From assembly GCF_003945235.1 (NCBI RefSeq), contig NZ_RSDW01000001.1, positions 1,260,001 through 1,292,000 of the forward strand: a DNA stretch of 32,000 nucleotides, given 5' to 3'. The notes below the pieces were generated by a model. The model did no database searches and was not told the origin of the DNA. It saw nothing but the letters and a program-made list of their open reading frames with translations. This DNA comes from Edaphobacter aggregans (GTDB lineage: Bacteria; Acidobacteriota; Terriglobia; Terriglobales; Acidobacteriaceae). This document shows, piece by piece, positions 5,212-21,564 of the stretch; the stretch's first letter is position 1, and the number at the start of each line of letters is the position of its first letter. Both the position numbers and the translations under genes were made by a program.

Positions 5212-5539
5212 AATTTCTCGTCCTGAACACCTTGATAACGACATTAGCCAACGTCATTTGAAACTGTACTATTGGTATCTCTTGACGGAGTAGCTGCACA
5301 TTTTGTTATGCAATAGCCTGAGGCTACTGCGCGCGTAACTTCAAGTCAATCAACCGACCGTGCGACTTAAGTGTGACCCTTCCTGCTGTGACTTTCTCGA
5401 CGCTTACCGCTCCAATATTTGCTGCTTCTGTGAGCGCCCTCGCCCAACTCCTTGGATGCATCCATATGCTGCCGTCTGGGCAAATCCACAGCGCAGATTT
5501 ACACGCCCCATTTGTGCTAAGTTGGTAAGGTGGTTGTTC

Positions 5540-5615
5540 GAGAGCGTAGCTCAGTTGGTAGAGCATCGCCCTTTTAAGGCGTTGGTCCTGGGTTCGAGCC
5601 CCAGCGCTCTCACCA
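5540..5615 (+). tRNA. tRNA-Lys (anticodon UUU), CCA encoded
   Basis: Manual cloverleaf, 76 nt. Acceptor GAGAGCG/CGCTCTC; D arm GCTC-AGTTGGTA-GAGC; anticodon arm TCGCC-CTTTTAA-GGCGT; variable loop TGGTC; T arm CTGGG-TTCGAGC-CCCAG; then A-CCA. Confidence 0.95.
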
Positions 5616-5616
5616 T
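5565..5616 (+). repeat. attL: 52-bp direct repeat (3' part of tRNA-Lys)
   Basis: ATCGCCCTTTTAAGGCGTTGGTCCTGGGTTCGAGCCCCAGCGCTCTCACCAT is identical to 21513-21564. Confidence 0.9.
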
Positions 5617-5655
5617 AAAATCAGTAACTTACAAGCACAACTAAAACCACAAAAA

Positions 5656-5699
5656 CCATCGGGGATACAAAAGGGATACTTCACTGGATACCCCGATGG
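5656..5699 (+). promoter_or_regulatory. Hairpin carrying three GGATAC repeats; candidate integrase arm-type sites (P' arm) and possible tRNA terminator
   Basis: The stem CCATCGGGG (5656-5664) pairs with CCCCGATGG (5691-5699). GGATAC occurs at 5663, 5673 and 5686. The 19-mer GGGATACAAAAGGGATACT (5662-5680) is repeated at 21368-21386. Confidence 0.5.
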
Positions 5700-5737
5700 A
5701 CTCTTTTCCTCCCATAGTTTCCACGCCCACCATTTCC

Positions 5738-6462
5738 GGCATCCAACGAACCAGATAGACCTAGTAGTTCCTTGAGCCCTCATTCGGACGAGTGAGGGTC
5801 TTTTTTTGTTCCCCCTATTCCTGTCACTCTCGGCCCTGTAGCCACCCCACCGTGTCTACATCCACGCACGCCGTTAATGGCATCTAACCAACCAGAGATG
5901 GATCTAGTAGTTCCTTTTCGGACCCTCATTCGGGAAGAGTGAGGGTCGCTTTTTGTGCTCCCCTTCTGTTTTCCAAACTCATAGGCATCCAATCACTCTT
6001 TATGGTGCGTCAAAAAATCCGGCGCACTTTTGAGGTCGCCTTCGGTTGTAGGTCGTGAAGAGCCCTCAACCTGACCAAAGTGCGCCACCCCTCCATATGA
6101 ACGTCATGGCTTTCGGAAGAGATGAAAGCCTTTGCCCGTAGGTTGCAGCCCATGCCGCACCGTGTCTACATCCAAGCAGATAGACCAGGCATCCAACAAA
6201 TCAGCAGAGCTAACCAGCTACAACCCTTTGAGACCCTCATTCGGATAGACGAGTGGGGGTCCTTTTTTGTGCCTTCTCCCACTCGATAGCATCTACATCC
6301 ACCCCACCAAATTCAGGCATCCAACGAACCAGATGGTGCAAAATGCTTTGCTTCTGAGGCCCTCACTCCGACGAGTGAGGGTTCTTTTTGCTCTGTTCAC
6401 TTTTCCGACACACAAGGCATCCAATCTTTCCACTGTGCGTCCTAAGAAAATAGGCGCACTTT
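5738..6462 (+). repeat. Array of six divergent sRNA-like modules (GGCATCCAA box, variable segment, GC hairpin, T tract)
   Basis: Units lie at 5738-5807, 5879-5954, 6188-6268 and 6316-6389 (hairpin CCCTCA..TGAGGG followed by T5-7). Two further units lie at 5984-6031 and 6416-6462 (hairpin GTGCG..CGCAC followed by T3-4). No credible ORFs are present. T tracts occur only on the + strand. Confidence 0.6.
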
Positions 6463-6913: not shown

Positions 6914-7600
6914 TCAATCTGCAGATTGGCGGGAGCATGAACTGAGGCTTGCTCCCACCTTCAAGTGCTCGTTATCGGTCCATTGGCATATTTTCGTGTG
7001 CTTTATTTTCTTGTCCCTGTCGATGTACAGAATGCAGCCCGGAAAGAAGTAGACTGGATCGGCTTGCCCTTCATCCAACCTACGATACGCTTCAGTGGGG
7101 AAAGAATATGAGTCGCCCGGAAACACTATATCTCCGACCTTCAAAGGCATGATATCTCCCTCAAGGCGCGCGCAAACCTTATCAATCGCTGGGCGTATAT
7201 CAGTCCCCCCGTTGCCAATAACTAGATCCAAGGCAGGAACCACATTAAAGGCGGGAGAGTTTCCGAAATTTTTTACTTTAGCCGTTATCTCAATATCCAT
7301 AGAGCCACGGGGATCATCGACCAACTTGGAAATTGTTATTGGATCAGCCAGTCCAACCCACGGTCGCTGGGACATCTCAAATTCCTGTTGAGCTATTCTT
7401 GCCTGTGTTCGGGAAACACTGATGCTCATATAGAGGGCAACAAGTGCTAAGAGGCTTATAGCGGCAGCCACACCTGTAATCCAATTGAGGTGTTTAGCTG
7501 TCCTAAGCGTTGTCTCACGATTTTTCTTTTCCTCGTCGTATCTTTCATTGCCTTTGGATGAAGACTCGATTTGCACAGGAAGAGGGTTGGGTATTTTCAT
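6914..7600 (-). CDS. Single-pass membrane protein, unknown function
   Basis: The track ORF starts at a TTG (7684); the first ATG is 7600 (MKIPNPL...). It has a charged N-terminus, one TM helix (WITGVAAAISLLALVALYM) and a C-terminal domain of about 150 aa. Confidence 0.6.
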   Translation of the reverse strand: MKIPNPLPVQIESSSKGNERYDEEKKNRETTLRTAKHLNWITGVAAAISLLALVALYMSISVSRTQARIAQQEFEMSQRPWVGLADPITISKLVDDPRGSMDIEITAKVKNFGNSPAFNVVPALDLVIGNGGTDIRPAIDKVCARLEGDIMPLKVGDIVFPGDSYSFPTEAYRRLDEGQADPVYFFPGCILYIDRDKKIKHTKICQWTDNEHLKVGASLSSCSRQSAD

Positions 7601-7803
7601 CAGGGGTTCTTGGACTGAATTGGCTCGGGTGCCAGGCTGTTGCGGATGGCCTTCGTGGTGCTTCTCATGTCTCTTTTTGTTCAAGGGTCATATCCCTGCA
7701 TTTCGCGCACCTAAATCTATCGTGAAAGAGTCCCAAACGCTAGAGCCTAAATCGAGATGAAGACGCAGGCTCATGCTGCCCTTAGGAGTGGTAGGCTGTC
7801 GGC

Positions 7804-8097
7804 ATGGCGATCATCGACTGTAACGTTTACGTATATCGAGATCCTTCGTTTCCCAGCGCGACGATTTGGGTGGAAGCTGACGACGGGAGGGCATGGGTTA
7901 CTGCCGTTGGAAAACTCGGTTTGCTTCAGCATGAAGCGGTGAACTTACCTCATGAATTGAGACATAGTCCTCCATCGGACGTATTGGGTTCTCTCAAACC
8001 GATATACAAATTTCTTGGGAGTTACCCATTCGATGAAGAAGTGCTGGACAATACGTGGGATATCGACACACCGCCCAACATTGCGAAGACCAAATAA
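7804..8097 (+). CDS. Hypothetical protein
   Basis: A 97-aa ATG-started ORF lying between two minus-strand membrane-protein genes. I recognise no motif. Confidence 0.45.
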   Translation: MAIIDCNVYVYRDPSFPSATIWVEADDGRAWVTAVGKLGLLQHEAVNLPHELRHSPPSDVLGSLKPIYKFLGSYPFDEEVLDNTWDIDTPPNIAKTK

Positions 8098-8187
8098 ATG
8101 TGCGGGCCGCTATTACAGACGCACAGACAAACAGAAGATTGCCGAAGCCTTCCACGTTGCATTGGGTTAAACTCCGCCAAACGGGAA

Positions 8188-8760
8188 TCACCTCGGAGGA
8201 GGGGTCCTCACTACGTGACCTTTATTCGCATCGGAATACCAATAGAAATGTCCGTTGGTTTGTCTTTTGGCTTTGTAGGGGAAGCTTTTAAAGCGTCTCC
8301 AGTGAATTATAGGGATACGATATTCCACCATGATCGCCAGTTCTGCGCTCAGTAAAGGTCCGAGTTGATCTGGCCAGACTTCGTTCAAAGCAACTTCAAA
8401 TTTTTCGTCCGTACCTAAGTCACGCGGGTGCCATTCCTCCGACCCCATTGCCGCGTAATCCTCAGAACTCTCATAGGTAGAGGAACGATTCGGGTCTCCA
8501 TACGTAATTTTGCCCAAGCCGAACGATGGTCGAACTGAAGTCAATGGTAGGTGTCCATTATTTGTGACCGTGACGGATGCCGAAAACGGGTTATTTGGGT
8601 CAACGGGATCGGAGATGGAGACGGTAACCCCAGGCCAAAAAGCCCACAATGCAATGACCCCAATGACTAGGCTAGTGACTCCAATCCAAATCCCCAGGTG
8701 TGCAAGACGCTTGGCCTTTCTAGCCTCTGATTCTCTTTGAAGTTGTTTCTTGGTGGTCAT
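8188..8760 (-). CDS. Single-pass membrane protein, unknown function; same architecture as 6914-7600
   Basis: ATG start. It has a basic N-terminus (MTTKKQLQRESEARKAKR), a TM helix (LGIWIGVTSLVIGVIALWAFW) and then a beta-rich-looking domain. Confidence 0.6.
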   Translation of the reverse strand: MTTKKQLQRESEARKAKRLAHLGIWIGVTSLVIGVIALWAFWPGVTVSISDPVDPNNPFSASVTVTNNGHLPLTSVRPSFGLGKITYGDPNRSSTYESSEDYAAMGSEEWHPRDLGTDEKFEVALNEVWPDQLGPLLSAELAIMVEYRIPIIHWRRFKSFPYKAKRQTNGHFYWYSDANKGHVVRTPPPR

Positions 8761-8878
8761 CGTGTTCCCGCCATCATTTCACACAAGAGTTTTCCACACA
8801 GCAAAAAATAAAATCTGTATACACAAACATTCGTTAGTGATTTTATCTGATCATGAGCTTGTCGAGATGGAGTGACCC

Positions 8879-9094
8879 ATGAAGTACCGCGAGAGTTGGG
8901 AACTGCCTAGCATTCCTAATGAAGTCTTCTGGCCTGAGGTCGGACGCAGAAGAAACGAGATAGCGAGTGGAGGCAGGCCAAAGACACTTCGGGACTGTGA
9001 ATACTGCGGACAACAGTACAGCGCCAGGGAGATGCGAAAACATAAGCCTCTATGTCCAAAGGGGCCTAACAAGAAAACCAAGAAAGGAAAATGA
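8879..9094 (+). CDS. Small putative zinc-ribbon protein with a basic tail
   Basis: 71 aa, containing CEYCGQQYSAREMRKHKPLC and a KKTKKGK tail. It is the first gene of a tightly packed three-gene + strand set. Confidence 0.45.
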   Translation: MKYRESWELPSIPNEVFWPEVGRRRNEIASGGRPKTLRDCEYCGQQYSAREMRKHKPLCPKGPNKKTKKGK

Positions 9095-9098
9095 ACCA

Positions 9099-9374
9099 AT
9101 GAAAGCAAGCAAGACTTCTGCCTCTAGCTCTTTCACCAACAACCACGTTTTCTCTGAGGCTGTCAGCCACAACCTACACCTCACCGCTTTTGTAGGGATT
9201 CGACTTCACGAGACCACCGAGTTCCTATACAAACTCAAGATGGAAACAGACGGTAAACCTTTCAGCAAGCGGAACGCGAACAGGATCAACCAGCTTGAGG
9301 TTGAGATTAAGAAGTACAAGCGTCAATTGGAAGAGGCAATGGCAGCAACAAAGCTGATGGAGGTGGCAGCATGA
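9099..9374 (+). CDS. Small coiled-coil protein
   Basis: The in-frame ATG at 9099 lies 5 nt after the previous stop. The C-terminus is heptad-like (INQLEVEIKKYKRQLEEAMAATKLME). The longer track ORF from 8967 would overlap the previous gene. Confidence 0.45.
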   Translation: MKASKTSASSSFTNNHVFSEAVSHNLHLTAFVGIRLHETTEFLYKLKMETDGKPFSKRNANRINQLEVEIKKYKRQLEEAMAATKLMEVAA

Positions 9375-9589
9375 GCATTGTTCTTATCAAAACTGTTGCC
9401 GATGACGTTATTAGCGATTATTTCTCTGGTGATCCGACGAACTGCCCACCAATACCAGAGGTAGGACACTTCATTGAGGGTTCATTTGGTAAGGGCCAAG
9501 TCAGCAAGGTGGAACACATTGTTGACTCATCCCTGTACACAATCAACTTGCATTTCACGAACACTGAACGTTATTACGACGCCAGCTAG
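9371..9589 (+). CDS. Hypothetical small protein
   Basis: ATGA start/stop overlap with the previous gene. A hairpin follows at 9612-9646. Confidence 0.45.
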   Translation: MSIVLIKTVADDVISDYFSGDPTNCPPIPEVGHFIEGSFGKGQVSKVEHIVDSSLYTINLHFTNTERYYDAS

Positions 9590-9611
9590 ATAACCCTTAA
9601 ACACAACAACT

Positions 9612-9658
9612 CCCCCACCGAGCCTCAATGAGAGATCAGGTGGGGGCATTGTGTTGCT
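9612..9658. terminator. Hairpin element A (CCCCCACC..GGTGGGGG followed by CATTGTGTTGCT); homolog of 10892-10934
   Basis: An 8-bp GC stem with loop GAGCCTCAATGAGAGATCA, 22 nt after the stop of 9371-9589. Confidence 0.5.
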
Positions 9659-9749
9659 CATGATCAATACTGCTCAGACCCTTGCTTGCGACAAAGCGTA
9701 GGATTGTCGAATATCAGGCGTAACACTTCCCTTTCTTATTCAAGAATTA

Positions 9750-9779
9750 GACCTTCTCCCCAGGAGGTCATTCTTTTTT
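9750..9779 (+). terminator. Rho-independent terminator, + strand
   Basis: GACCTTCT-CCCC-AGGAGGTC followed by ATTCTTTTTT. The T:G pair in the stem is tolerated only in a + strand RNA. Confidence 0.55.
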
Positions 9780-9796
9780 GCCTGAGTCTTTAAACA

Positions 9797-9841
9797 CAAA
9801 AAAATGGCTCCTACCACCCGATTAAGGATGATAGGAGCCAT
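9797..9841 (-). terminator. Rho-independent terminator, minus strand
   Basis: A perfect 10-bp stem, ATGGCTCCTA/TAGGAGCCAT. On the minus strand it is followed by T7-8 (the A run at 9797-9804). It lies downstream of gene 10007-10498. Confidence 0.6.
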
Positions 9842-10006
9842 TGTTGTTCCATAGTGAATCTATAGGGCAAATTCGCGCACAGTGTTCACGTACGCCTCTA
9901 GTATCAGGTGCCAGAGGGTTTCACTCACATGCCCTAAAAGTTGCACTCAGGGATTCTTCCAGCGATATACTGGTTGAACTACGACAAAGAAACGGGCATC
10001 CGAGTG

Positions 10007-10498
10007 CTAACGATAATGACCAATCATTTCTGAAACTGTGTTGTTTGTCATTCCCTCCACCGAACCATAGGTGAGCAGTATTCCTCTCTCTCCGCAGTCG
10101 ATGAAGACCCGATTCATCTTTGTGTCCGGCGAAGCCATTGGAGCGTGTGAGATTGTGCATTTCGTGGCTCCTTGGTCAATAAGAGCGGTAAGAGCGTCCA
10201 TCACCGAAGGCAGGCCATCTGATTCATGTAGCCAATTTCGGTCGGCATATACCAACTTATTGTTCACGAATTTCAAGGTGTAAATTCGCTTCGTTTGCAC
10301 ATCTACGGCTATTACCGGACTGTCTGAATTGGGCTTGTCGGGGAAGATCAGGCCGGAGGCTTCAATATTCTGTTTAGCTGTCGCCTTGTCCATACCCAGC
10401 CATACAGTTGCCGAGCCGAGTTGTAGTGAAATACCGTGATTAGATTGAGCGAATGCACTAAACGTACATAAAGCGACCAAAGATATGAGACTCTTCAT
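10007..10498 (-). CDS. Secreted protein of unknown function
   Basis: Signal peptide MKSLISLVALCTFSAFAQS; 163 aa. Confidence 0.6.
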   Translation of the reverse strand: MKSLISLVALCTFSAFAQSNHGISLQLGSATVWLGMDKATAKQNIEASGLIFPDKPNSDSPVIAVDVQTKRIYTLKFVNNKLVYADRNWLHESDGLPSVMDALTALIDQGATKCTISHAPMASPDTKMNRVFIDCGERGILLTYGSVEGMTNNTVSEMIGHYR

Positions 10499-10562
10499 TG
10501 CTGGTTGTCCTTTGGGTGCATTCTATCGTGGCAGGTGGGGTGTTTTCCTTATACTCATAGGG

Positions 10563-10868
10563 ATGAAAAAGCCCAATGAACCGAAGCGGTGCTGGCGTAT
10601 TCGCGGGTACGATAGCCTAACCCTGATATTCGATCAGAGCGTTCCCACTGGACAGCTAACCGAAGGCAACATGAAAGAACTGCTCCGTGCCCTCGTCGCG
10701 AAGGATCTGTTACCAAGCGAGCTTATCGGTGCGTATGCGAGACGAGGCACAAAGATACACAATCGGTTTTTAGAGATTCAAAAAGAGAACTTGCCTGAGA
10801 AAAGACGTGTCCTCTACACCTGTGGTGAAAATCCTTACTACACAGCAGATGTAGAAGTGTGCGATTAG
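10563..10868 (+). CDS. Hypothetical protein
   Basis: ORF 10485-10868. The likely ATG is 10563 (MKKPNEPKRCW...). It is divergent from 10007-10498. Confidence 0.45.
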   Translation: MKKPNEPKRCWRIRGYDSLTLIFDQSVPTGQLTEGNMKELLRALVAKDLLPSELIGAYARRGTKIHNRFLEIQKENLPEKRRVLYTCGENPYYTADVEVCD

Positions 10869-10882
10869 TTCCAAGGTCCCCC

Positions 10883-10934
10883 AAAAAATGAGCCCCACCA
10901 CCTCAATGAAGAGATGATGGGGCATTGTGTTGCT
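10883..10934. terminator. Bidirectional terminator, hairpin element B
   Basis: An A6 run (10883-10888), then the stem GCCCCACCA/TGATGGGGC with one mismatch, then CATTGTGTTGCT. It sits between the convergent genes 10563-10868 (+) and the capsid gene (-). Confidence 0.6.
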
Positions 10935-10982: not shown

Positions 10983-12200
10983 TTAGGTTGCGGACATAAC
11001 CAGCCGAATCATAGAAGGCGAAGAGGTCTGAATCGTGCTATATCCACCCGCACGCTGTACAGCGAAAAACGCTGTAGCGTTGTATTCCAGGTACCGATCC
11101 ACACTCTTACGTACGACGAGCGGACCCGCCTGACGATAGGTATACGACTTGTAAGCATCGCCCAGAAGGATTGGAGACTTCGATGCGCCCAGATCGTCAA
11201 TCTTCTGAGCGATACGGATGGGCAATCCAAGGAACGACTTGAACGGGTTCCCCTGAAAGTCAGTGGTCAGGATTGGACGGTTCTGGGAGTCCTTGATATC
11301 AAGCAGACTTGCCCAAGTACGCGAGTTCATCCACAGAGCGGCCCCTGCGAGGTAACTTGGGTCGAGCTTCGCGTAGAAATTGATAAGGGTGTCGTACGAT
11401 ATGGTGCTAGCGCCACCAGTAGGTGCGGTATAACCAACTGGAGTAGCAGTAGCCAACGACTGGAAGTTAGAAGCATTACCTGCGATGATTGCTTCGCTGG
11501 CAGTGTTCACCCAAGCCGTATTGATGGTTTCGCTAAGGAACTGCTCAATCGAGAACGCACTGTCCTGAATCAGTTGGTTGCTTACCTTTGTCATCAAGGT
11601 CAGCGTATCGACGTTGGAGGTGAATCCACCTACGCTAGGATCAGTTTCCGTGGCGGCCGTATTCTCTGGATTCAGCGTGAAGCGAACCGCTGTCGGATCT
11701 GCCGTACCCACCTTAATTCCTTCACCCGAATCAGTATTCCAAGTGCGTACACCCGAAAGAATCTCTCCAGTTGCCTTCGTCGCAGTGTGGAGAAGTGGAT
11801 CAAATCCTACGGGCACAAGCACGCCAGCAGCACCGCCCACGGTCATGTCACGCTGTTCATACTTCAGATACTCGCGGTCCTCAGGCTTCAACTTGCCAGT
11901 GATGTAGTTAGCGAATGCACGCATTTCCAGCCTGCTACGCTTCTCATCTACAACACCGTCAATCTGGTCCGCATCCTCTGCGATTGGTCCACGGGGTGGC
12001 CGACTGGAGTGACGCTGTTCTGCCTCAATAGCGGCTGCACGCTCCTCAACATCAATTCGTTCATGAATAAGCTGGGAGTCCTCAATCATCTTTCGTGCGG
12101 ATGCACGATCCTCTCTCGATACGCCATCCTTTGCGAGGATCGCCTGTGCATCGTATACAAGCTTGTTCTTCTGTTCACGCAACGTATTCAAATTCGACAT
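10983..12200 (-). CDS. Major capsid protein, HK97 family, with an N-terminal delta (scaffold) domain
   Basis: 405 aa. The N-terminal ~100 aa are coiled-coil and charged; the remainder is a typical HK97-fold sequence (..GGAAGVLVP.., ..LPIRIAQKIDDLG.., ..AFFAVQRAGG..). It follows the prohead protease gene. Confidence 0.9.
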   Translation of the reverse strand: MSNLNTLREQKNKLVYDAQAILAKDGVSREDRASARKMIEDSQLIHERIDVEERAAAIEAEQRHSSRPPRGPIAEDADQIDGVVDEKRSRLEMRAFANYITGKLKPEDREYLKYEQRDMTVGGAAGVLVPVGFDPLLHTATKATGEILSGVRTWNTDSGEGIKVGTADPTAVRFTLNPENTAATETDPSVGGFTSNVDTLTLMTKVSNQLIQDSAFSIEQFLSETINTAWVNTASEAIIAGNASNFQSLATATPVGYTAPTGGASTISYDTLINFYAKLDPSYLAGAALWMNSRTWASLLDIKDSQNRPILTTDFQGNPFKSFLGLPIRIAQKIDDLGASKSPILLGDAYKSYTYRQAGPLVVRKSVDRYLEYNATAFFAVQRAGGYSTIQTSSPSMIRLVMSAT

Positions 12201-12359
12201 ATTATTCTTAGCCTTTCGTAGCTAGGTAGGGCACAAGACATCCACATAGGCACACAAAGGCGTGCGTCTGGGTCCAGGCGATAAATTGTTAGGTGGGTAT
12301 AGAGAGCACACACAACTTGGTTGAGTGTCTGTGCTGGTGTTGCGTAAGTTGTAAAAGGG

Positions 12360-13097
12360 TTATTTCAGCTTGAGGATTTGAACCTGCATCCTGAGCTTCC
12401 AGAGTTCTTCATCAGCCTTATTGAGAATGCTTCTGTCCTCGTTCTGTGCAGGACAACCGTTCACTCTGCACGCTGGATCTTCGCAGTCTGAGTCCAGGCA
12501 TTGGCTGCAATCGCCAGCAACGCACATCAAGCAATCGCAATCACAGCCATCTTCGTTGCTACGCTTGGCCAACAGGCTTCTCAGTTCCTTTGGGCAGGAT
12601 CTGACATCAACCTGAGTTTGGAGGTACGCGGGGTTAGCCGTAACGGTAAGCTCTGTTAGCTCTAAAGCCTCAACAGTTCTTATCGCCGTGCCCTTGTCAT
12701 CCTTCCACGAATCTCGCGTGCAATAGAATCCAAACGAGCAACCTGCCGTGTCGCCACGTTCAATCGAAATAGCAAGATCGTTTGCATACGATTGCCGCGT
12801 ATCAATCGGACAAGTGAAGCTGACTCCCTTTGAATCAGTTGTGAGCCTTAGATTGCCTGCACGAGTCGAGCCTAAAATCTGCCCACTGTCATGGTTGTGA
12901 AGGAGCAGAACGTTCTTACCGCTATTGAGTGTGTCAGTCACAGCATCAGGCGAAATCACTTCTCTGAAGTTGCCTAAATCCTGACTGCGTTGATTGAACA
13001 CAATTGCACGGCCTGATAACGTCCTCTTTCCATCTGCGGCCGGTTTGGAGATTCGTAACTCCTCTACTGGCAGATGGCGAAGTTCTTTGTTATTCAT
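12360..13097 (-). CDS. Prohead serine protease (HK97/S78 family) with a Cys-rich C-terminal insertion
   Basis: Motifs GRAIVFN, LLLHNHD and GCSFGF fit the HK97 protease His/Ser region. Its ATG overlaps the portal stop by 8 nt. Confidence 0.85.
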   Translation of the reverse strand: MNNKELRHLPVEELRISKPAADGKRTLSGRAIVFNQRSQDLGNFREVISPDAVTDTLNSGKNVLLLHNHDSGQILGSTRAGNLRLTTDSKGVSFTCPIDTRQSYANDLAISIERGDTAGCSFGFYCTRDSWKDDKGTAIRTVEALELTELTVTANPAYLQTQVDVRSCPKELRSLLAKRSNEDGCDCDCLMCVAGDCSQCLDSDCEDPACRVNGCPAQNEDRSILNKADEELWKLRMQVQILKLK

Positions 13098-14391
13098 CTT
13101 TTTGTCCTTCGTTAGAGTCTGCTGGAGCTAATCCAGAGTCAGGCCCAACAGGTTCATCCTGAATCGACTGGGTATCCAGTAGCGTCTCCGCGTTCTGATA
13201 GTTCACAGGTACGCGGTATGCGTTCAAGCACTCAGGACCGGGATTGAGATTCAATGCATGTCGTACCTCTGCAGGACTCAGCCATCCCCCTTGTACGCCA
13301 GCAGTGAACGCTGCGGACTCAGCTACAGAGTCACCGCGAGTAAGTTCAGTGGTATCGAACTCCACGTCATAGTTTCCGGCTAATGTGCTCAGTACCTTCC
13401 GTCTGAGTTCTGATTCAAAGCGTGAAAGCCAAGGACGCAGAGTCTGGGTTACCAGTTGCAAATTCTCCTGCACCAGGTTGGCGTTGGATATCTTCTGAGT
13501 GTCGCCAACCAGATGGGGTGCGATTCTGAAGATCGCGGCAATGTCTGCACGCTGGTAATTGCGAGTCTCAAGGAATTGACTATCCTCTGCACTGATGCCT
13601 AGCTTTTCAATCTTCATGTCTGCGTCAAGAATTGCGACTCTATGCTGACTGCTACCCGTCTGGAGTGTTTCCCAATCCGCACGCATCTTGGCTTTGTCTT
13701 CGGCCTTTACTTTTGCCGTGGTCGTAATCGCCAACGCTGGAACTGCCGAACTTTTGAATAGGGTGCTTCCGTAACGCTCTGCTGCCCTTGCTAGACCAAT
13801 GGATTGGCGTGCCGCATGGATTGGGCTGAGTCCAATAAGTCCACAGATGCTGATACCCAGGAAGTGCAGAACGTCTTTGCCTTTTAGCAGCCTAGCAACA
13901 CCGTCACCATCAGTGGTGCGATACCCAATACTCCCGTCAGGGAGACGTACAGGATTGGTCAGTTCAGGTCGTAGAGGCCAGAATGCAACGGGAGATCCGT
14001 TCGCTCCTGATCGCTGAATCTGTGCATATGCGTTTCCGTGAAGGCAAACCCAAGTTGTCATTAGTTCCCAAAAGGACACAGCAGTCTGCTCGTCTGAGGG
14101 ACTATCACGAAGCAATTTATATACAGGATGCGAGATTGCTTCCTGTCTTCCGTTTGCAGTGCGCGAATATAGTTTGCACGGCAGGCTTCCTAGAGATTCT
14201 GCCAGGATCCGTACGCAAGCCCAAACGGTACTGACCTGCATTGAGTTCTGGGGTGTAATTATTTCGCCTGCATCAGAGTTCGTTCCGAATCCGAAGACCG
14301 ATTGCCAATTACCAGGCACAGGCAGTGAAAAGCCGTTCTCGCTGCGTTTCTCAGTTTTGGTTGTAGGCATTGAGAGCCCTAGCGTAATCAT
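13090..14391 (-). CDS. Phage portal protein, HK97 family
   Basis: VWACVRILAESLGSLPCKLY and the downstream portal-like sequence. The track ORF extends to 14574 but would then overlap terS. The likely start is ATG 14391 or 14370. Confidence 0.85.
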   Translation of the reverse strand: MITLGLSMPTTKTEKRSENGFSLPVPGNWQSVFGFGTNSDAGEIITPQNSMQVSTVWACVRILAESLGSLPCKLYSRTANGRQEAISHPVYKLLRDSPSDEQTAVSFWELMTTWVCLHGNAYAQIQRSGANGSPVAFWPLRPELTNPVRLPDGSIGYRTTDGDGVARLLKGKDVLHFLGISICGLIGLSPIHAARQSIGLARAAERYGSTLFKSSAVPALAITTTAKVKAEDKAKMRADWETLQTGSSQHRVAILDADMKIEKLGISAEDSQFLETRNYQRADIAAIFRIAPHLVGDTQKISNANLVQENLQLVTQTLRPWLSRFESELRRKVLSTLAGNYDVEFDTTELTRGDSVAESAAFTAGVQGGWLSPAEVRHALNLNPGPECLNAYRVPVNYQNAETLLDTQSIQDEPVGPDSGLAPADSNEGQKDE

Positions 14392-14404
14392 TTCTTGTTT
14401 TGTC

Positions 14405-14908
14405 CTATTCTGGTTTCGGGTGAGTGTGCGGCCAGCGTTCGTGGAAGTGTTCATCCAGTTCCCGCATCTCCTGCTCAAACTCATCCCAACGCTTTTCTTC
14501 CTCAGTTCGTGTGTCTGAATCAGGCTTAGGATTGGGGCTGGATGCGGGAGTATTAATGCCATCAGCAACGCCACCTTTGAACGCCTCTAGCAAACTGATA
14601 AGCTTCGTCATCTCTGCACTCTTCAGACCATCCGTTCTAAGCTTCACTGTCAGCTTCACAGCAACCTCAACCAGAAGCCTGTCCGAATGACTGAGAGCAG
14701 GAGATTGCTTGACAATTTCTGCCCATACCTTCTTTTCGTCGGCAGTCAAATGGGCGGGGGCTCTACCGATGGCAGCAGTCGGAGGTTTTGCAGATTGTGC
14801 CGCCTGTGCCGCCATCTCAGCCTCGATTCTGGCCTTATAGCGGCCTTTATTTTGCTGATAGGTTCCACTAAGCATGAGTTCTTGAATGGTCTTGCGAGGT
14901 GTTGGCAT
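14405..14908 (-). CDS. Terminase small subunit, P27-like
   Basis: The N-terminus MPTPRKTIQELMLSGTYQ and the segment APAHLTADEKKVWAEIV...LSHSDRLLVEVAV resemble the P27 TerS family. An AAGGAAG Shine-Dalgarno lies 7 nt upstream of the ATG. The gene sits immediately upstream of portal. Confidence 0.7.
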   Translation of the reverse strand: MPTPRKTIQELMLSGTYQQNKGRYKARIEAEMAAQAAQSAKPPTAAIGRAPAHLTADEKKVWAEIVKQSPALSHSDRLLVEVAVKLTVKLRTDGLKSAEMTKLISLLEAFKGGVADGINTPASSPNPKPDSDTRTEEEKRWDEFEQEMRELDEHFHERWPHTHPKPE

Positions 14909-14967
14909 TTGCTAACTTCCTTCGGTCTTTTGCGTCTAAATTTGCAGTAACACTTTCACTTTTCCGC

Positions 14968-15013
14968 GACCATCCGAGCCCAAACAACGTTGAGGCTGGA
15001 TGGTCATTTTTTT
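14968..15013 (+). terminator. Strong + strand rho-independent terminator, antisense to the terS leader
   Basis: GACCATCC(G)AGCC pairs with GGCTGGATGGTC (12 bp with one bulge), followed by ATTTTTTT. There is no T tract on the minus strand. Confidence 0.6.
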
Positions 15014-15693
15014 GATGAGTGGTTTAGACCGAAATGCGACTCGTGGCTAGTCTCGGAACCTTAAGGCTTCAAGTATTTACCCACCCCTATTGCACTTTTC
15101 CAGCAACTTGCGAGAGGACTCCTATTGCGTAGTCTCTGGAAGAGCTGCCCCATTTTGACGCACGCCACGTTGCCGTCACAACACTACGGCAAACTCGACA
15201 TCATGAGGTGTTTACGAATGCCGGTGAAGACAAGTTGGTGCTAGAATTGTCCGCTTTTCAATAGTGAAAGCAAGGGCCGCGCAGTTAAATCCAAAACAAG
15301 CGAGGCATGTATATGGGTTTTATTCTTTGCATATTTTACGGCGGGAAGATGCACTGTCATCCGATCCCAATTTATGAAATTCCAATAACCCTCGTGCACG
15401 GACCAGGTCCTGTAAATTACCAGCCGTTGATTCACGATTTAACTCTGGTAGCCTCGATTCAGGCCGCAGCAAATAAAGTACAAGATAAAAAGGTGGGTGC
15501 TGCCTTGAGCCAAGGAATACAAGAGGCTGTGAAGGCCATCCAAGCTCGTGCCGGTGAAGGCATTGAGATCAAGGCCATACAAGCCAAAGGCCAGTAAGCG
15601 TGAAAAGGGCGGGAGGGTTTGCGCTCAACCGTCCTTTGTCACCGAGATGACGGGGTTGAAAGAACGCCCTGATTGAAGTCAAGCGAAATCCTG

Positions 15694-16164
15694 TTAGCTT
15701 CCGGCACTTAACGTCACAGGCCCACTGATCTTGAGTTTCACACTCCAACCCACAGCTTTGCTGGTGTCAACGCTGATGTCACGACTCTGCACCAATGCAC
15801 TGAAGCCATAGGTATCCCCCACGGTTGTTTGTCCAGCTTGCACGTTGATCGGAAGAACCAACTTAAAGTCATATTTGAGACCAGATGCGAACGCTGCCTC
15901 TACTGCAACCTGCCCAGCGTCAGAGGCTACGCGATTACCACTAATGTCTAGTGTGCCGTTATCCCTCATCGTGGTGATGAATTCAGAATCAGCCCCTGAC
16001 TGGAAGTTAGATACATCGTCTGTGGACCACTGAGCCCCAGAGATACCAGACGATTTAATTTCTCCAATCGTTACGAACGTGGGAGACCCACCTGCTCCAG
16101 TGACACCACCAATGCTGAGAGATGAACCGCGACCTGCCTGAGCCCTGCTGCCCGTGTATGACAT
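15694..16164 (-). CDS. Phage tail tube (major tail) protein-like
   Basis: 156 aa. The pattern G.SLSIG....F..IGEIKS..G....DV.....S..EFI....D.G.L.......Q......G....F.L.LP......F.A.V.S......VKLKISG.VT matches remembered siphovirus tail-tube (TTP) families. AAGGAG lies 8 nt upstream of the ATG. Confidence 0.55.
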   Translation of the reverse strand: MSYTGSRAQAGRGSSLSIGGVTGAGGSPTFVTIGEIKSSGISGAQWSTDDVSNFQSGADSEFITTMRDNGTLDISGNRVASDAGQVAVEAAFASGLKYDFKLVLPINVQAGQTTVGDTYGFSALVQSRDISVDTSKAVGWSVKLKISGPVTLSAGS

Positions 16165-16221: not shown

Positions 16222-16605
16222 TCATGCTCGGTCCCAGAAATCAATCCATAGTCGTCTTGTGCGTGGAGTGTGTAGGATCTGGTACCTGCCTGCCAAGGTT
16301 CCCGTACTTCGACCAGGAATCTCGTTGAACTCAATTAGTTCTGCATCTGCCAATTCGTTACGTGCTGCCACAAACTCGGATGCGTTCATATACTTCTTTT
16401 GCATCAGTTTGGAATCTGGAAAATTTCTGCGAGTCACTCCCCAAAACAACATTGTGTTCGCAATATATCCATAGAGGCGTTTTGCTGCCACAGATAACTT
16501 GTCTTGGTGTTCAATACTCAGAAGTTCTTGCGGTCCAAGGTGCTTAAACGGGATCGGTAGATGTTCAGCGTCGTTATAGTTTGTCATTGGTTCTAATGCC
16601 TTCAT
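16222..16605 (-). CDS. Hypothetical protein, possible winged-helix DNA-binding domain
   Basis: The segment AAKRLYGYIAN...MNASEFVAARNELADAELIEF looks wHTH-like (weak). The start is uncertain: 16650, 16605 or 16587. Confidence 0.45.
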   Translation of the reverse strand: MKALEPMTNYNDAEHLPIPFKHLGPQELLSIEHQDKLSVAAKRLYGYIANTMLFWGVTRRNFPDSKLMQKKYMNASEFVAARNELADAELIEFNEIPGRSTGTLAGRYQILHTPRTRRLWIDFWDRA

Positions 16606-16684
16606 GGAATTTGGATGAAGCCAGCGAGAAGGAGCGCAGGTCGTGGACAATCAACCGCGCATTCAACTTGTGTGGAGAAAAAAA

Positions 16685-17029: not shown

Positions 17030-17566
17030 TTAGGTCTCTGGAAAGTTCAGATAGGCGTATTCGCCGTGTAGCTCTTTGGCTACCTTGTCGTAGGCTTTCG
17101 CTGCCTCTATCTCTGTCATGTGACGGCCTAACCACTTCATTACGCCGTTGACTCTGATATGTGCCGCCCATTGCTTTGTGTGCCAGGGATCTATTCCTGA
17201 AACACCCTTGTACCTTGAATTCTGTCTAGGTGTGCATTTCTTCCAGGCCGCCTGCTCCTTGGTTCCGACCAGCAGATTAGACTTTCTGCAATCCAGAGTG
17301 TCAGGGGTCCGATGGAACACCGTCATGCTGTCCGGAGGATTCATCAGGAAACGATGGAGCAGAATCGCTGACTGTTTACCGCCTGTTCGGTAGACGTTGG
17401 CACGGAAATATACAGTCCCGTTTCTTTCCTTGTGAGCGTGCCAGTTGTGTTCTGCCACTCTGTCCACGTCCTCAAGGTCAATCAGCACATGGAACTGACC
17501 GAGCTTGCCAGTGATAACCAGAACAGCTTCGTCATTCTTAACAAGAACCGAACTCATGGGAACCAT
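17030..17566 (-). CDS. HNH-like / AP2 domain DNA-binding protein
   Basis: The N-terminal part is HNH_3-like (LLHRFLMNPPDSMTVFHRTPDTLDCRKSNL; the usual DNR is DCR). The C-terminal part is an AP2 domain (SRYKGVS...WAAHIRVNG...LGRHMTEIEAAKAYDKVAKELHGEYAYLNFP). The track start is a TTG; the first ATGs are at 17566 and 17557. Confidence 0.75.
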   Translation of the reverse strand: MVPMSSVLVKNDEAVLVITGKLGQFHVLIDLEDVDRVAEHNWHAHKERNGTVYFRANVYRTGGKQSAILLHRFLMNPPDSMTVFHRTPDTLDCRKSNLLVGTKEQAAWKKCTPRQNSRYKGVSGIDPWHTKQWAAHIRVNGVMKWLGRHMTEIEAAKAYDKVAKELHGEYAYLNFPET

Positions 17567-18209
17567 TGAAAACAGGCTGGAAGATTTACAAATTTCGCCA
17601 AAGAATCTCAAGGTTAGCAGATTGGGTTTAAGTTGTTAACTCTTGTGTTTTCAGTCTTTATATTCTTGTTATTAACAGGGTTGTTAGAGTATGGACGCAA
17701 TGATGGTTAACCCCCATCGTTTTGAACATGCTGTGTGACACGCATGGACTATAACGAGCACTGGTTTAACTAGACAGGGTTGAAAGTCTTGACTGCCATC
17801 AAGATCATCTGGGGCCTAAATTTACGGTCTCTAGTGGGATGTGCACCCTAACCCAACCGCCTAGTCCTCACGGCTCTAGGATTCGTCCGTCGTCTATTAC
17901 CGGACACCTGCGTTGCTTATCAGACAACGGCTTTAGCCATCCAATGTGCAATGATTGCACTCCAGACAACTGGCACCACTGGGGTATCGTTAGAATCCCG
18001 TGGGAACATCTTCATCATTCAGTTTCAGATTGCCCACGGCTTCTGACGGTTGTTCAGAGTTCTGCCATGTGTGGGGTCTGTCTGTTTGGCTTTCATGAGG
18101 AAGAGGAATTATTCTCTCTACCCCTTACATAGATATAGAACTGTCACACTTGTCCAAAATGCATCCAAACCCGAAAATTAAATGAAAATACTTCAATTTA
18201 TTTTCGATA

Positions 18210-18277: not shown

Positions 18278-19333
18278 TTAGGCACTGGGAAGCCACTTCA
18301 GCTTTACCCTCATCCGCTCCACACGCTTGCGAACAGTAGCGGGGTTCATTCCCAGCCCCTTGGCAATCTCTGCACAGTTGGAGCCTGCCTGTAGCTGGTT
18401 GGCAATCAGCCGATTGGTTCCTGTGACCCAATCAGGCAACTTCTCTACCGTCTTGAGGTCAGGAGGTTGAACATAGCGAGAGGCTGGATGGTGGCGTTCT
18501 TCATCATGAATATATTGCCTGATGACATCTGGATGTTCCTCTTCTTCACCAAACTCAGTCTCAACCAAAAAAGGAACCATGCCGGCGTAATTTGCATTGA
18601 TCTCCCGTTTGGCATCACATCCAACCGTGTGGCAGATTGTTGTAAGCCAGGCGCAGAAATCGCCGGGTCCACCAACAAACTTATTGAGACCGTTGCAGAC
18701 TTTCATGGCTACTATCTGCGAGTAATCATCTTCATCTTTGAATGCGTCAGGCAAACCGTGGATTGCACCTTTGATCTTCTTCTTAGCAAAATCAATGACA
18801 CAATCAAGCAAATATTCCCCGGCTATTTCATGGGCGTTATTTTCAGTTACAAACGGGTCGATGAAGTTTGCATACGCCTTCTCAATCCCGTCTTTGTTGC
18901 GACGGTACTGAATTGCTTCTAGGCTGTTCCCTCTACCATCCCCAGTATCGAGCCAGGATTGCTCAGGGGCGTCTTCTGAGTCTTCAATGGGCTCTGAGTA
19001 CCCTGATTTCGTGATAGGGCATCCAGGTGACATTGTTGTAGGGAATGGATTACGCCTGATCGTTTCAATGTAGACACGCCGTTCTGTGCAGGCTGGTTCG
19101 ATGTAACCGCACTGCTCAGGGAAGCTGACGTACAACGTCTTGCGGGGTCTCTTGGTGCCAACGATGGAGTCATAACGAGCCGCTGTCTTCTGCATCAGTT
19201 CCGGCCACCATGCCATTGTTTGGTCTGCCTTGGTCCTGTGGTCTGGTGTCCAGTTGTGTTCAGGCTGTGGGAAGAAGTCGCTGGGGATAGTCCTTGGTCG
19301 GCATGTGGGAATTGCTTTATGAGCTGCGGCCAT
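18278..19333 (-). CDS. ECF-type sigma-70-like protein with an N-terminal extension of about 160 aa of unknown function
   Basis: Region-2-like DYSQIVAMKVCNGLNKFVGGPGDFCAWLTTICHTVGCDAKRE. Region-4-like LPDWVTGTNRLIANQLQAGSNCAEIAKGLGMNPATVRKRVERMRVKL. Its ATG overlaps the upstream stop (TAATG). Confidence 0.6.
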   Translation of the reverse strand: MAAAHKAIPTCRPRTIPSDFFPQPEHNWTPDHRTKADQTMAWWPELMQKTAARYDSIVGTKRPRKTLYVSFPEQCGYIEPACTERRVYIETIRRNPFPTTMSPGCPITKSGYSEPIEDSEDAPEQSWLDTGDGRGNSLEAIQYRRNKDGIEKAYANFIDPFVTENNAHEIAGEYLLDCVIDFAKKKIKGAIHGLPDAFKDEDDYSQIVAMKVCNGLNKFVGGPGDFCAWLTTICHTVGCDAKREINANYAGMVPFLVETEFGEEEEHPDVIRQYIHDEERHHPASRYVQPPDLKTVEKLPDWVTGTNRLIANQLQAGSNCAEIAKGLGMNPATVRKRVERMRVKLKWLPSA

Positions 19334-19635
19334 TAGTCCTGTTCCTCAACTGAGCAGAGGCTTGCGTGAGGAGTCCTAGCGAATTTCTGAAGGGCAGATG
19401 GAAGGAACATAACTTTACTTCCATGTCGCACAGAGTCGAGAAGGCCGTTGGCCACACACGCATCCAAAGTTCTTAACGAGACACTCAAGGCAAATGCGGC
19501 TGATCGACGGTCATAAAGAAACTTCGGAACTGCTGGTTTGTCAGTGAGATAGGTGTTATCTGCGCTGGCGTGAATGGTGTCAATAATGCCAGCCATAGGG
19601 ACAGGCATAGCAATAGATTCAATAGAATCAATCAT
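19333..19635 (-). CDS. Excisionase/AlpA-like helix-turn-helix protein
   Basis: RRSAAFALSVSLRTLDACVANGLLDSVRHGSKVMFLPSALQKF resembles the Xis/AlpA (HTH_17) family. The track start is a TTG at 19698; ATG 19635 is preceded by AAGGA. Confidence 0.55.
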   Translation of the reverse strand: MIDSIESIAMPVPMAGIIDTIHASADNTYLTDKPAVPKFLYDRRSAAFALSVSLRTLDACVANGLLDSVRHGSKVMFLPSALQKFARTPHASLCSVEEQD

Positions 19636-19698
19636 TTGGAGATATTCCTTTGTATTTATTGGGTTTATTTCAAGGTAGAGATATCCTGTCCTCGGCAA

Positions 19699-20150: not shown

Positions 20151-21332
20151 CTACTTCTCAAGCTGTCTGAGCCCTTCCATTGCTAACCGCATGGTCTTCT
20201 CGTTCAGGTGGATGTATCGGGCTGATGTTTGGGCTGACTTGTGACCGGCTGCCTTCATGATGACGAACGCATTCGCGCCGTTCTCAGCCAACCGTGTGCA
20301 GAAACTGTGCCGCAGATCATGCCAGCGGAAATTCTTAATCCTCGCCCGTCTGAGTGCAGAGGCAAACCATTTTTTATTATCTGCAATGGCAAAAACTAAA
20401 TCAGGAGCAGAATTGTTTGGCTTACCCGCTACTCTGCGCTTGCGATGAAGAGAGAGTGACTTGAGTCCTCGGAACGCCTTGAATACGTCTTCGTTCATGT
20501 AAACAACGCGATCCGTGTTTGTCTTCGTGTTGCGAACCATTATTTTCTTTTCTTCAAACTCAACATCTGGCCAGGGCAGACTGTACTGTTCACCCCGACG
20601 CAATCCTGCTCCAAGCGCAATGTCCAACTCGTAGATGTGGTGCTGTGCTCTCTCCTTCAGGGTCGTCTTCGTGGGTCCGCAGGCGTCAACATCGGCCTGC
20701 AGAACTTTACGCAACCGCGCCTCTTCCTTTTCAGAGAGCGCCCTGATTACACCTTCACCCACTGGCTCGGATGCCACATCCCTAGCCGGATTGACGGAAA
20801 CCTTACCCTTCCGTATGCCATGCCGATACACACCTGAGAATGTCGTCTTGAGCCTGTTACGGGTCGCTGGAGCCCTGTCTATGTTCTCCAACCAATCGGA
20901 AATCTCATGCGCCTTCACCCCAGAGGCGATTCTGCTCCCAAACTCTTTTTTGATTTGCCCTAGTCGTCTAGGTGGGTTCTCTTGGTCCTTGTACTTCTTG
21001 GGATTCTTCTGGATGTGGTTCAGCAAAAGGTCACAGAGGTGGGAAACCGTGACACCTGCTATTTCTGCCTCCACCTCGTCTTTTGTTCTCGCGGTTTGCT
21101 TGGCCGTCTCTGGAACAGAACCATTGCCAGACGAACGGATGTATCGAACCTTTTCCAAATAGGCAACAGCATCCTCCCTCCTGCCTATTCTCTTACGCAC
21201 CAGATGCCCGTGGAGGCGATAGCGGACGTACCAGATACCTGAGCCCTCATTCTTCTCGTAAACGCCTGCTACAGCCTTTCCTGTGCGTTTCTTTCTGGGT
21301 GCGGGGTGGGTGGGGTGGGTCATGGCAGTCAT
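20151..21332 (-). CDS. int: Tyrosine recombinase / phage integrase
   Basis: C-terminal catalytic motifs (LRRGE..., WHDLRHSFCTRLAENG, GHKSAQTSARYIHL). N-terminal arm-binding-like domain (GIWYVRYRLHGHLVRKRIG). The start is probably ATG 21332 (GGAGG upstream); the track ORF extends to 21407 over the arm-site repeat. Confidence 0.9.
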   Translation of the reverse strand: MTAMTHPTHPAPRKKRTGKAVAGVYEKNEGSGIWYVRYRLHGHLVRKRIGRREDAVAYLEKVRYIRSSGNGSVPETAKQTARTKDEVEAEIAGVTVSHLCDLLLNHIQKNPKKYKDQENPPRRLGQIKKEFGSRIASGVKAHEISDWLENIDRAPATRNRLKTTFSGVYRHGIRKGKVSVNPARDVASEPVGEGVIRALSEKEEARLRKVLQADVDACGPTKTTLKERAQHHIYELDIALGAGLRRGEQYSLPWPDVEFEEKKIMVRNTKTNTDRVVYMNEDVFKAFRGLKSLSLHRKRRVAGKPNNSAPDLVFAIADNKKWFASALRRARIKNFRWHDLRHSFCTRLAENGANAFVIMKAAGHKSAQTSARYIHLNEKTMRLAMEGLRQLEK

Positions 21333-21367
21333 GCAGAAGAGTCCTCCAGCCGCCATAATACCTGTCT

Positions 21368-21386
21368 GGGGATACAAAAGGGATAC
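21368..21386 (+). promoter_or_regulatory. Candidate integrase arm-type site (P arm)
   Basis: GGGATACAAAAGGGATACT is identical to 5662-5680 and in the same orientation. Confidence 0.5.
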
Positions 21387-21512
21387 TAATTTCCGATTAT
21401 GCTGCAACTCAATGCGCTGTATTGCTCATGAGGCTTCATTTTATACATCAATGTTTAGAGGGGTTTAATACGTATTGAGATGCATAAAGAGGCACTGTGT
21501 GTCAGCAATGTA

Positions 21513-21564
21513 ATCGCCCTTTTAAGGCGTTGGTCCTGGGTTCGAGCCCCAGCGCTCTCACCAT
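21513..21564 (+). repeat. attR: 52-bp copy of the tRNA-Lys 3' end (no 5' half, not a gene)
   Basis: Identical to 5565-5616. The upstream sequence GCAATGTA does not continue the tRNA. Confidence 0.9.

Follow-up and report, generated by a model that had tools for sequence, protein, structure and literature searches.

Can a chromosomal island that encodes a phage head, and no motor to fill it, be a mobile element in its own right, or is it what remains of a prophage? The question is raised by a stretch of 32,000 nucleotides from Edaphobacter aggregans (contig NZ_RSDW01000001.1, positions 1,260,001 to 1,292,000 of the forward strand), hereafter the window, in which genes for a small terminase subunit (TerS), a portal, a prohead protease and a major capsid protein lie side by side, and a gene for the large terminase subunit (TerL) is missing. 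A first-pass annotation, made from the sequence alone, had read these genes as a streamlined TerL-less capsid island, a candidate satellite and not a product of random decay. This reading has since been strengthened by about 18 distinct related loci (denoted below by L numbers), by direct repeats at the attachment (att) sites, by the grouping of the islands in a clade of their own, and by signs of purifying selection. The island of the window is part of a maintained lineage, not a decayed prophage, and we consider it probable that it is a capsid-forming phage satellite, which contributes its own TerS and head and depends on a helper phage for TerL, neck, tail and lysis.

The head operon and the search for a large terminase subunit

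On the minus strand, downstream of a spacer and of a lone tail gene, the intact genes for TerS, portal, protease and capsid follow closely on one another:

15694-16164, minus strand: tail-tube (major tail) protein homologue, intact, 156 amino acids (phrog_158, 1.8e-13; tube_lmo2291, 25 bits, cut-off 27)
14909-15693: non-coding spacer of 785 bp upstream of terS, with no open reading frame (ORF) longer than 96 amino acids
14405-14908, minus strand: probable TerS, distantly related to the Terminase_7 and P27 families (weak PHROG matches and homologues)
13090-14391, minus strand, start ATG at 14391 or 14370: HK97-type portal (PF04860, 3.5e-99; NCBIfam portal_HK97, 268.4 bits, cut-off 112)
12360-13097, minus strand: S78 prohead protease, 245 amino acids (PF04586, 3.6e-41; proheadase_HK97, 84.7 bits, cut-off 59)
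10983-12200, minus strand: HK97-fold major capsid protein, 405 amino acids (PF05065, 7.6e-39, residues 126-386; major_cap_HK97, 196.7 bits, cut-off 27.5)
10892-10923, minus strand: intrinsic terminator, a 13-bp stem, 8 of its pairs GC, and then a T-run, about 60 nt past the capsid stop codon

The first-pass annotation had the gene coordinates right, as well as the spacing of 14 or 35 nt between terS and portal and the 8-nt overlap of portal and protease (13090-13097). Since terS ends at 14405 and the two possible start codons of the portal gene are at 14391 and 14370, there is indeed no room for TerL between them. Shine-Dalgarno-like motifs (GAAGGA or AAGGAG), which had also been pointed out, precede the terS, protease and capsid genes, and the tail-tube gene as well. 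The terminator marks the end of the head operon, and L077, L138 and L001 have its sequence conserved after their capsid genes.

Portal, protease and capsid all exceed the curated cut-offs of the NCBIfam HK97 equivalog models, which bears out the identities first given to these three genes; the best identity of the capsid to that of any isolated phage is 27%. The N-terminal stretch of the capsid protein, ahead of the domain match, is likely to be a delta (scaffolding) domain, to judge from the boundary of the PF05065 match and from reading of the sequence, with no scaffold-specific match involved. The protease has a Cys-rich C-terminal insertion of about 45 amino acids, which among 42 homologues is seen only in island proteases. 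The insertion, at 12431-12539 (residues ~187-222), reads CxCxCxxCxxGxCxxCxxxxCxDxxC and is probably metal-binding; it is common to L010, L005/L006 and L011, and is not found in L077 or in any of the 36 homologues outside the island family.

The identity of TerS, the fourth of the genes named in the first pass, is supported indirectly. The 167-amino-acid protein (100% identical to EDE15_1060) has weak direct matches to TerS families (phrog_12559, 1e-3; phrog_83, 3e-3) and no match in Pfam or NCBIfam, and a search of its profile against PDB sequences gave no match. Its homologue in Granulicella (L010:9440-9907; phmmer 2e-22 to the window protein) scores 27.1 bits against PF25673, Terminase_7, where the cut-off is 27, and its homologue in L005 matches Terminase_4, Terminase_7 and Terminase_6. 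The top Foldseek matches of an AlphaFold model are small terminases (best TerS-like match, E=5e-3), and the weak tblastn matches that have an annotated target all fall on terS of phage D3 and its relatives. A tail assembly chaperone was considered as an alternative because the L005 homologue directly precedes a tape-measure-like gene; it was rejected in view of the Terminase_7, _4 and _6 matches of the homologues, and of Foldseek and tblastn.

To look for TerL, we built a hidden Markov model (HMM) from 69 TerL proteins adjoining related portals and ran it with all filters off (--max) on six-frame fragments of at least 25 amino acids. It found nothing in the window, where the best match had E=10, or in its relatives (E>5 throughout). 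Likewise, Pfam searches detected no large-subunit terminase family of any type among all called ORFs of the window, nothing at E<=0.1 among 84 six-frame fragments from the intergenic zones of the island, and no TerL family in 12 related loci (scans of 96 and 101 ORFs); a tblastn search of the window that used TerL from each of the two nearest annotated phages gave nothing below E=0.5. As positive controls, the same HMM picked up a TerL at the contig edge in L062 and a 99-amino-acid remnant in L051, and of 80 portal-related loci that belong to other lineages it detects TerL in 70. Outside the family, a locus without TerL is in most cases a short or truncated contig; one exception is L079 (Vicinamibacterales), which has full flanks and no TerL and lies outside the island clade.

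Two observations on these other loci may be recorded here. In L051, from Hansschlegelia plantiphila, the remnant is a C-terminal TerL fragment directly upstream of the portal (9423-9719), and this locus, which does not belong to the island clade, is a truly decayed prophage. In many proteobacterial portal-related loci (L038, L039, L041, L045, L070 and others; positions ~9350-9950) an ORF with a match to the S78 protease stands immediately upstream of the portal, not downstream, which is an unusual gene order.

The spacer upstream of terS had been described as free of long ORFs in any frame, and it is. TerL profiles run in six frames over this region and over the other gaps, as the first pass had advised, revealed neither TerL nor a remnant; family-ORF tblastn, repeat search, six-frame Pfam and Rfam found no remnant in the spacer either. 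It is not conserved among the other islands and holds a promoter-like site on the minus strand (15360-15333); it is a candidate site for the promoter and for a pac or cos signal.

What the first-pass annotation missed is the tail-tube gene on the other side of the spacer, so that its description of a region with head and packaging genes only has to be amended. The length of the product agrees with that of phage tube proteins (142-161 amino acids), its homologue in L098 (2e-09) exceeds the Pfam cut-off for Phage_tail_3, and its Shine-Dalgarno sequence (AAGGAG) is the best in the island. No other tail or neck function came to light: Pfam and PHROG searches of the window gave no match to a head-tail adaptor, connector, stopper or tape measure, and none to a primase, and the window has no holin or lysin match.

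A lineage of islands without TerL

The operon lies within an integrative island of 15.9 kb, which takes in the locus tags from about EDE15_1048 to beyond EDE15_1060, with a tyrosine integrase at the end far from tRNA-Lys(UUU):

5540-5615, plus strand: tRNA-Lys(UUU), the integration target (ARAGORN; Rfam tRNA, 71 bits), its 3' part within attL
5565-5616: attL core, a 52-bp perfect direct repeat, 100% identical to 21513-21564 at a spacing of 15,948 bp
21513-21564: attR core, a partial copy of the 3' end of tRNA-Lys (repeat search)
5661-5680 and 21368-21387: the 20-nt motif GGGGATACAAAAGGGATACT, an exact repeat just inside both ends
20151-21407, minus strand: tyrosine integrase (PF00589, 1.2e-24; phrog_1, 2.4e-50)
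19333-19698, minus strand: small protein adjoining the integrase, with homologues beside the integrase in L005, L006, L010, L077, L138 and L093

From roughly 5.6 to 21.6 kb the GC content is about 0.48, against about 0.58 before this stretch, and it is back to about 0.57 across attR; the island as a whole is at about 0.48-0.50, its flanks at 0.57-0.60. The att core of the window also borders L077 and L138, homologous islands at tRNA-Lys of the kind that the first pass had proposed to look for. The integrases of all three are related (phmmer 2e-216 and 78% amino acid identity to L138; 2e-178 to L077), and all are at tRNA-Lys. The motif GGGGATACAAAAGGGATACT recurs unchanged near both ends of L077 (7477-7496 and 16228-16247) and is a candidate arm-type binding site of the integrase. 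The small neighbouring protein, which itself has no Pfam match in the window, is by its position a putative excisionase or AlpA-like regulator.

Among 5.8 billion proteins, the TerS-like protein has only 5 homologue clusters; the capsid protein has only 16 at E<=1e-30. Relatives were gathered from the contexts of such homologues and from contig scans seeded with portal and protease alignments; a scan with a single portal sequence returned nothing, and the portal alignment as a query succeeded. The named hosts are four, all of them Acidobacteriota: E. aggregans (the window), Granulicella aggregans (L010), Acidobacteriaceae bacterium KBS 89 (L011) and a metagenome-assembled genome of Acidobacteriaceae (L077). 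The remaining loci come from metagenomes, IMG/VR contigs and other assemblies.

TerL is found in none of the 13 loci that have at least 5 kb of sequence upstream of the portal. Every relative with a protease identity of at least 45% is without it, and among the more distant protease relatives with enough flanking sequence nearly all have TerL, about 1.4-3 kb upstream. The closest homologues, which would always lie in full prophages if the island were a simple deletion derivative of one, are all in small TerL-less islands. Island ends could be identified in the window and in four relatives, in each case as perfect or near-perfect direct repeats derived from a tRNA gene:

L010: 42-bp repeat, tRNA-Leu(UAG), island of 15.7 kb
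L005: 60-bp repeat, tRNA-Leu(UAA), island of 14.9 kb
L077: 47-bp repeat, tRNA-Lys, island of 9.0 kb
L138: 54-bp repeat, tRNA-Lys, island of 16.9 kb (repeats located by blastn with the att core of the window, not by repeat search)

Contig L006 was at first a candidate for an excised circle on account of a 17-bp terminal repeat, which is best explained as an assembly break, because both contig ends lie within the two att repeats of L005.

The chromosomal flank of L138, a metagenome contig (Ga0070734_10000150), is 98% identical to the window over 3.4 kb (window 2325-5706), and the island that follows is a different variant, with an integrase 78% and a protease 77% identical to those of the window and with the rest largely unrelated. 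The presence of different islands at one tRNA-Lys next to near-identical flanks indicates turnover of islands in a species-level background.

The backbone of the family starts with the integrase, the small integrase-adjacent protein, a protein with sigma region 4 and, in some islands, a Zn-ribbon/Toprim primase; it continues with a pair of small conserved ORFs, then terS, portal, protease, capsid and the cargo, and closes with a small conserved gene at the end far from the integrase. What never varies in the lineage is a core of tyrosine integrase, HK97-type portal, S78 protease and capsid, and terS usually directly precedes the portal. About 10 islands have a detectable TerS, and L011, L077, L138, L156 and L158 do not. 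No island of the lineage has TerL, lysis genes or a complete tail.

Neck and tail genes occur in the islands singly and at non-canonical positions. The tube gene is upstream of terS in the window and between terS and portal in L098; in L138, genes for a gp6-like connector and a head completion protein precede the portal gene. In L005 (10424-12697) and L006 (6291-8564) there is a 757-amino-acid coiled-coil protein with the C-terminal domain of the lambda tape measure (PF09718), whose gene lies between terS and portal, exactly in the usual place of TerL, with no other tail genes in that island.

When trees were built by neighbor joining, the island sequences grouped into one clade among the portals (16 of 124 leaves) and likewise into one among the capsids (13 of 45 leaves), and neither clade includes a locus with TerL. 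Bootstrapping recovered the portal clade in 49/50 replicates and the capsid clade in 96/100. Within the clade, portal identity is as low as about 30%, and the ORFs are still intact. NG86 estimates of dN/dS are 0.11-0.19 for protease, capsid, terS and integrase, with dS near saturation, and the island genes are under purifying selection. The exclusive clade, deep divergence, intact ORFs and low dN/dS together indicate that the TerL-less state is ancestral to a maintained lineage, and that the absence of TerL in the window island is not the outcome of a recent deletion in the E. aggregans genome. What real decay looks like is seen in L156, where the portal gene is frameshifted.

Other genes and elements of the island

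16222-16650, minus strand: protein of 142 amino acids, no family match in Pfam, PHROG or NCBIfam
17030-17611, minus strand: HNH endonuclease with AP2 domain (phrog_99, 1.3e-24; Pfam AP2 and HNH_3 below cut-off)
18278-19333, minus strand: regulator of 351 amino acids, whose C-terminal half resembles a divergent ECF-type sigma-70 region, preceded by an N-terminal extension of about 190 amino acids
6588-6890, plus strand: conserved family gene EDE15_1048, about 90-100 amino acids, at the island end far from the integrase
6914-10868: variable cargo, ORFs of 256, 97, 190, 135, 72, 163 and 127 amino acids

The regulator gives weak matches to sigma70-ECF and related NCBIfam models over residues 200-346. 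It has homologues with Sigma70_r4 in L093, L096 and L138; L010 and L005 have further sigma region 4 proteins in the corresponding place, which show a link between themselves and none to the regulator of the window. The 142-amino-acid protein resembles a 141-amino-acid ORF of L005 by eye, and phmmer gave no link. Upstream of the HNH gene there is a 37-bp non-coding element (17673-17707), 89% identical to one upstream of the small-ORF block in L007, a metagenome island (588-624); it may be a shared promoter or operator.

The family gene at the integrase-distal end has homologues at the same island end in L010, L011, L077, L138 and L093, and 8 clusters in a large protein database. It has no match in Pfam, PHROG or PADLOC; the AlphaFold model has a pLDDT of 65, and Foldseek against the PDB was uninformative. 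Between this gene and attL, at 5707-6450, there are three to four diverged direct-repeat units (repeat families D1, D2 and D4-D6), each of which ends in a hairpin on the plus strand that resembles a terminator, GCCCTCAyTC...GAGTGAGGG and then a T-run (5776, 5921, 6232 and 6358). Two of the units hold a short copy of the first 12 or so codons (..QP..HRVYIH) of the family gene. The array has no Rfam match and is not present in L077 or L138; it could consist of repeated small-RNA genes or of scars of earlier integrations.

The cargo of the window has no Pfam or PHROG match, nothing meaningful in PADLOC and mostly no homologues in related islands; relatives carry KAP NTPase, HEPN_AbiV, Mrr-like and SRAP proteins, and L010 and L005 have the Zn_ribbon_DnaG/Toprim primase-like protein. 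Two cargo proteins of the window, at 6914-7684 (256 amino acids) and 8188-8760 (190 amino acids), both on the minus strand, each show, as read by eye, one N-terminal transmembrane helix and after it a similar-looking domain; they are possibly superinfection-exclusion or abortive-infection factors. The terminator element at the end of the head operon is duplicated (9803-9842 and 10892-10923), with 16-nt repeats at 9643 and 10919. Between the copies lies an insert of about 1.07 kb with ORFs at 10007-10498, read as a signal-peptide-like protein, and at 10485-10868. Both terminator copies map to one place in L138 and L077, and the insert looks like a small acquisition of cargo.

Proposed helper-dependent packaging, its rivals and known systems

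With a portal-bearing procapsid and TerS to mark its DNA, but no functions for translocation, tail or lysis, the island is proposed to depend on a helper phage for packaging. Upon infection by the helper, or its induction, the island would excise by means of the integrase and its small neighbor. The sigma-like protein, plausibly the activator of the head operon, would then switch on transcription from terS through capsid, ending at the terminator, and the island would assemble its own procapsids, probably small ones. Island TerS would mark island DNA and recruit the TerL of the helper, which would have to dock on the island portal, while the helper phage would provide the neck, tail and lysis functions. 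The lone tube gene of the window, and the tape-measure-like or connector genes of its relatives, might serve to adapt or modify the borrowed tail.

Several points weigh against this proposal. No helper phage has been identified, and no excised or packaged form of the island has been observed. The docking of TerL on the portal is usually specific, and we know of no demonstrated precedent for a foreign TerL working on a portal of the island type. The assignment of the window protein to TerS draws on weak or transitive evidence, and the lack of detectable TerS in L011, L077, L138, L156 and L158 means that redirection by TerS is not a universal packaging route in the family. The trees are neighbor-joining only, hosts are assigned for few of the islands, and the window island is without the primase-like replication gene of L010 and L005.

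The island may alternatively be thought of as a defence or interference locus, whose portal, capsid and tube are decoys that poison phage assembly while the island itself stays unpackaged. The relatives do have cargo of defence type (KAP NTPase, HEPN_AbiV, Mrr-like), a lone tube protein could cap or disrupt helper tails, and satellites commonly interfere with their helpers (PMC10085698). Still, co-evolving portal, protease and capsid, with a likely scaffolding domain, and TerS besides, exceed the needs of a decoy; the variants at one att site in near-identical genomes attest to horizontal turnover, and PADLOC finds nothing in the cargo of the window. Defence of this kind is compatible with transfer as a satellite and does not exclude it; as the explanation of the island we think it unlikely. 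Tai tail-interference (PMC11364771) was considered as a parallel for the lone tube gene, and none is offered there.

Some features would suit a cryptic prophage in decay, its head genes left over from a full HK97-like siphophage after deletion of TerL, most of the tail and the lysis genes: the tail-tube gene stands alone, a gene-free spacer of 785 bp adjoins terS, relatives have lone tape-measure-like or connector genes, and decay does occur in the island group, as the frameshifted portal of L156 attests. We regard this as very unlikely, because there is no remnant of TerL or of another gene in any gap, even though the method does detect the remnant in L051; because TerL is missing from all 13 islands with sufficient upstream sequence, which form one clade with portal identities down to 30%; and because the ORFs are intact, with dN/dS of 0.11-0.19, and the att repeats perfect. 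The tail and neck genes upstream of the portal are also in an order that is not canonical for phages.

About as improbable is a self-sufficient particle system resembling a gene transfer agent (GTA), with TerL and tail genes elsewhere in the chromosome, as in dispersed GTA loci. The window covers 32 kb of a 6.15-Mb genome, so that TerL could act in trans from another chromosomal locus. However, the head genes belong to an att-flanked island with an integrase, found at different tRNA sites in different hosts and differing from its flanks in GC content (about 0.48-0.50 against 0.57-0.60), and in classical GTAs, such as RcGTA, TerL adjoins the portal. Finally, a DNA-free protein compartment or some other exapted HK97 head module would account for the missing packaging ATPase, but it is scarcely credible, as portal and TerS have no role in a closed compartment, encapsulin systems have no portals, and the mobile-island context speaks against it.

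The satellite explanation, if true, has several consequences. Conservation of portal, protease and capsid, usually with TerS and never with TerL, implies a division of labor between satellite and helper that differs from those described; a foreign motor must dock on the satellite portal, steered by the satellite TerS, and the compatibility of motor with portal and of TerS with TerL across unrelated elements becomes open to experiment. Phage satellites would also extend to the Acidobacteriota, a dominant and poorly studied soil phylum with few characterized phages; our literature search found no paper that ties satellites to this phylum beyond a passing mention. A more tentative proposal, to which we would not yet commit ourselves, is that the islands represent a further independent origin of capsid-forming satellites, the first in Acidobacteriota and the first with their own portal, protease and capsid and full reliance on helper TerL, in which single tube, tape-measure and connector genes are interchangeable tail adaptors. 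Tools of the SatelliteFinder type would miss such islands, since they have no TerL, no connectors and a forbidden tail gene, and prophage callers would label them 'incomplete prophage'.

Among known systems, HK97-like temperate siphophages, such as phage D3 and prophage L037 in Pyrinomonadaceae, share with the island the families of the head module, TerS and tube, but in these phages the TerL gene comes right before that of the portal, the modules for neck, tail and lysis are complete, and the genomes measure 35-60 kb. From the gene set of a complete siphophage beyond the head, the 15.9-kb island has only the tube, with no TerL, neck, tape measure, baseplate or tip, or lysis genes. VEIMEs (PMC9618062) were considered and set aside, as they encode no portals or capsids.

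Staphylococcal pathogenicity islands (SaPIs; SaPI1 and SaPIbov1), which belong to the phage-inducible chromosomal islands (PICIs), combine a satellite TerS with helper TerL (10.1101/2022.09.08.507074), and this established route of redirection is the one proposed here. SaPIs use the capsid and portal of the helper and only remodel capsid size, whereas our island encodes portal, protease and capsid itself. Portal and capsid genes are forbidden components of a classical PICI, and the island is therefore not one. The EPIPs of Mycolicibacterium aichiense (preprint, December 2025; PMC12822802) encode TerS and a capsid protein together with a tape measure, and TerL is not among their listed genes; they are similar to the island in these respects and, as regards L005 and L006, in the lone tape measure. 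They differ in having a serine integrase, a scaffold protein, an adaptor and a stopper, with no portal or protease reported (PMC12822802), and in their host phylum; there is no sequence relationship, and the window has only TerS and a capsid gene in common with them in kind. With a tyrosine integrase, portal and protease, the island is not an EPIP. The Streptomyces satellites MulchRoom and MiniFlayer have their own head genes (portal and capsid) and TerS, as the island does, but their gene sets include TerL, a scaffold protein and an adaptor as well.

The closest parallel is provided by capsid-forming PICIs (cf-PICIs, e.g. EcCIEDL933), which build their own small HK97-type capsids and take only tails (10.1101/2022.09.08.507074). 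Like them, the island is an integrase-bearing chromosomal element, about 9-17 kb long in the present family, with its own HK97-type portal, prohead protease, capsid and TerS, an HNH gene, no complete tail and no lysis genes, and its capsid genes form clades apart from those of phages. Sizes of 9-17 kb would fit small capsids and are near the cf-PICI median of 14 kb. Among the core genes that define cf-PICIs is TerL, with 60 TerL for 61 capsids in the original set (PMC10085698; 10.1101/2022.09.08.507074); known capsid-forming satellites carry their own TerL, so that their packaging is self-contained and only tails are stolen. In the window island and all its relatives TerL is absent, and head-tail adaptors or connectors are missing from the window and found, among relatives, only in L138. 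Moreover, the window island holds a tail-tube gene, although the SatelliteFinder model of cf-PICIs forbids tail and holin genes (PMC10085698); it has an ECF-sigma-like regulator instead of an AlpA-type one and no primase-replicase match, and the hosts named so far in its family are Acidobacteriota. Lacking TerL and adaptor or connector, and possessing a forbidden tail gene, it falls outside the cf-PICI definition; by analogy, it would work most like a cf-PICI whose motor has been outsourced.

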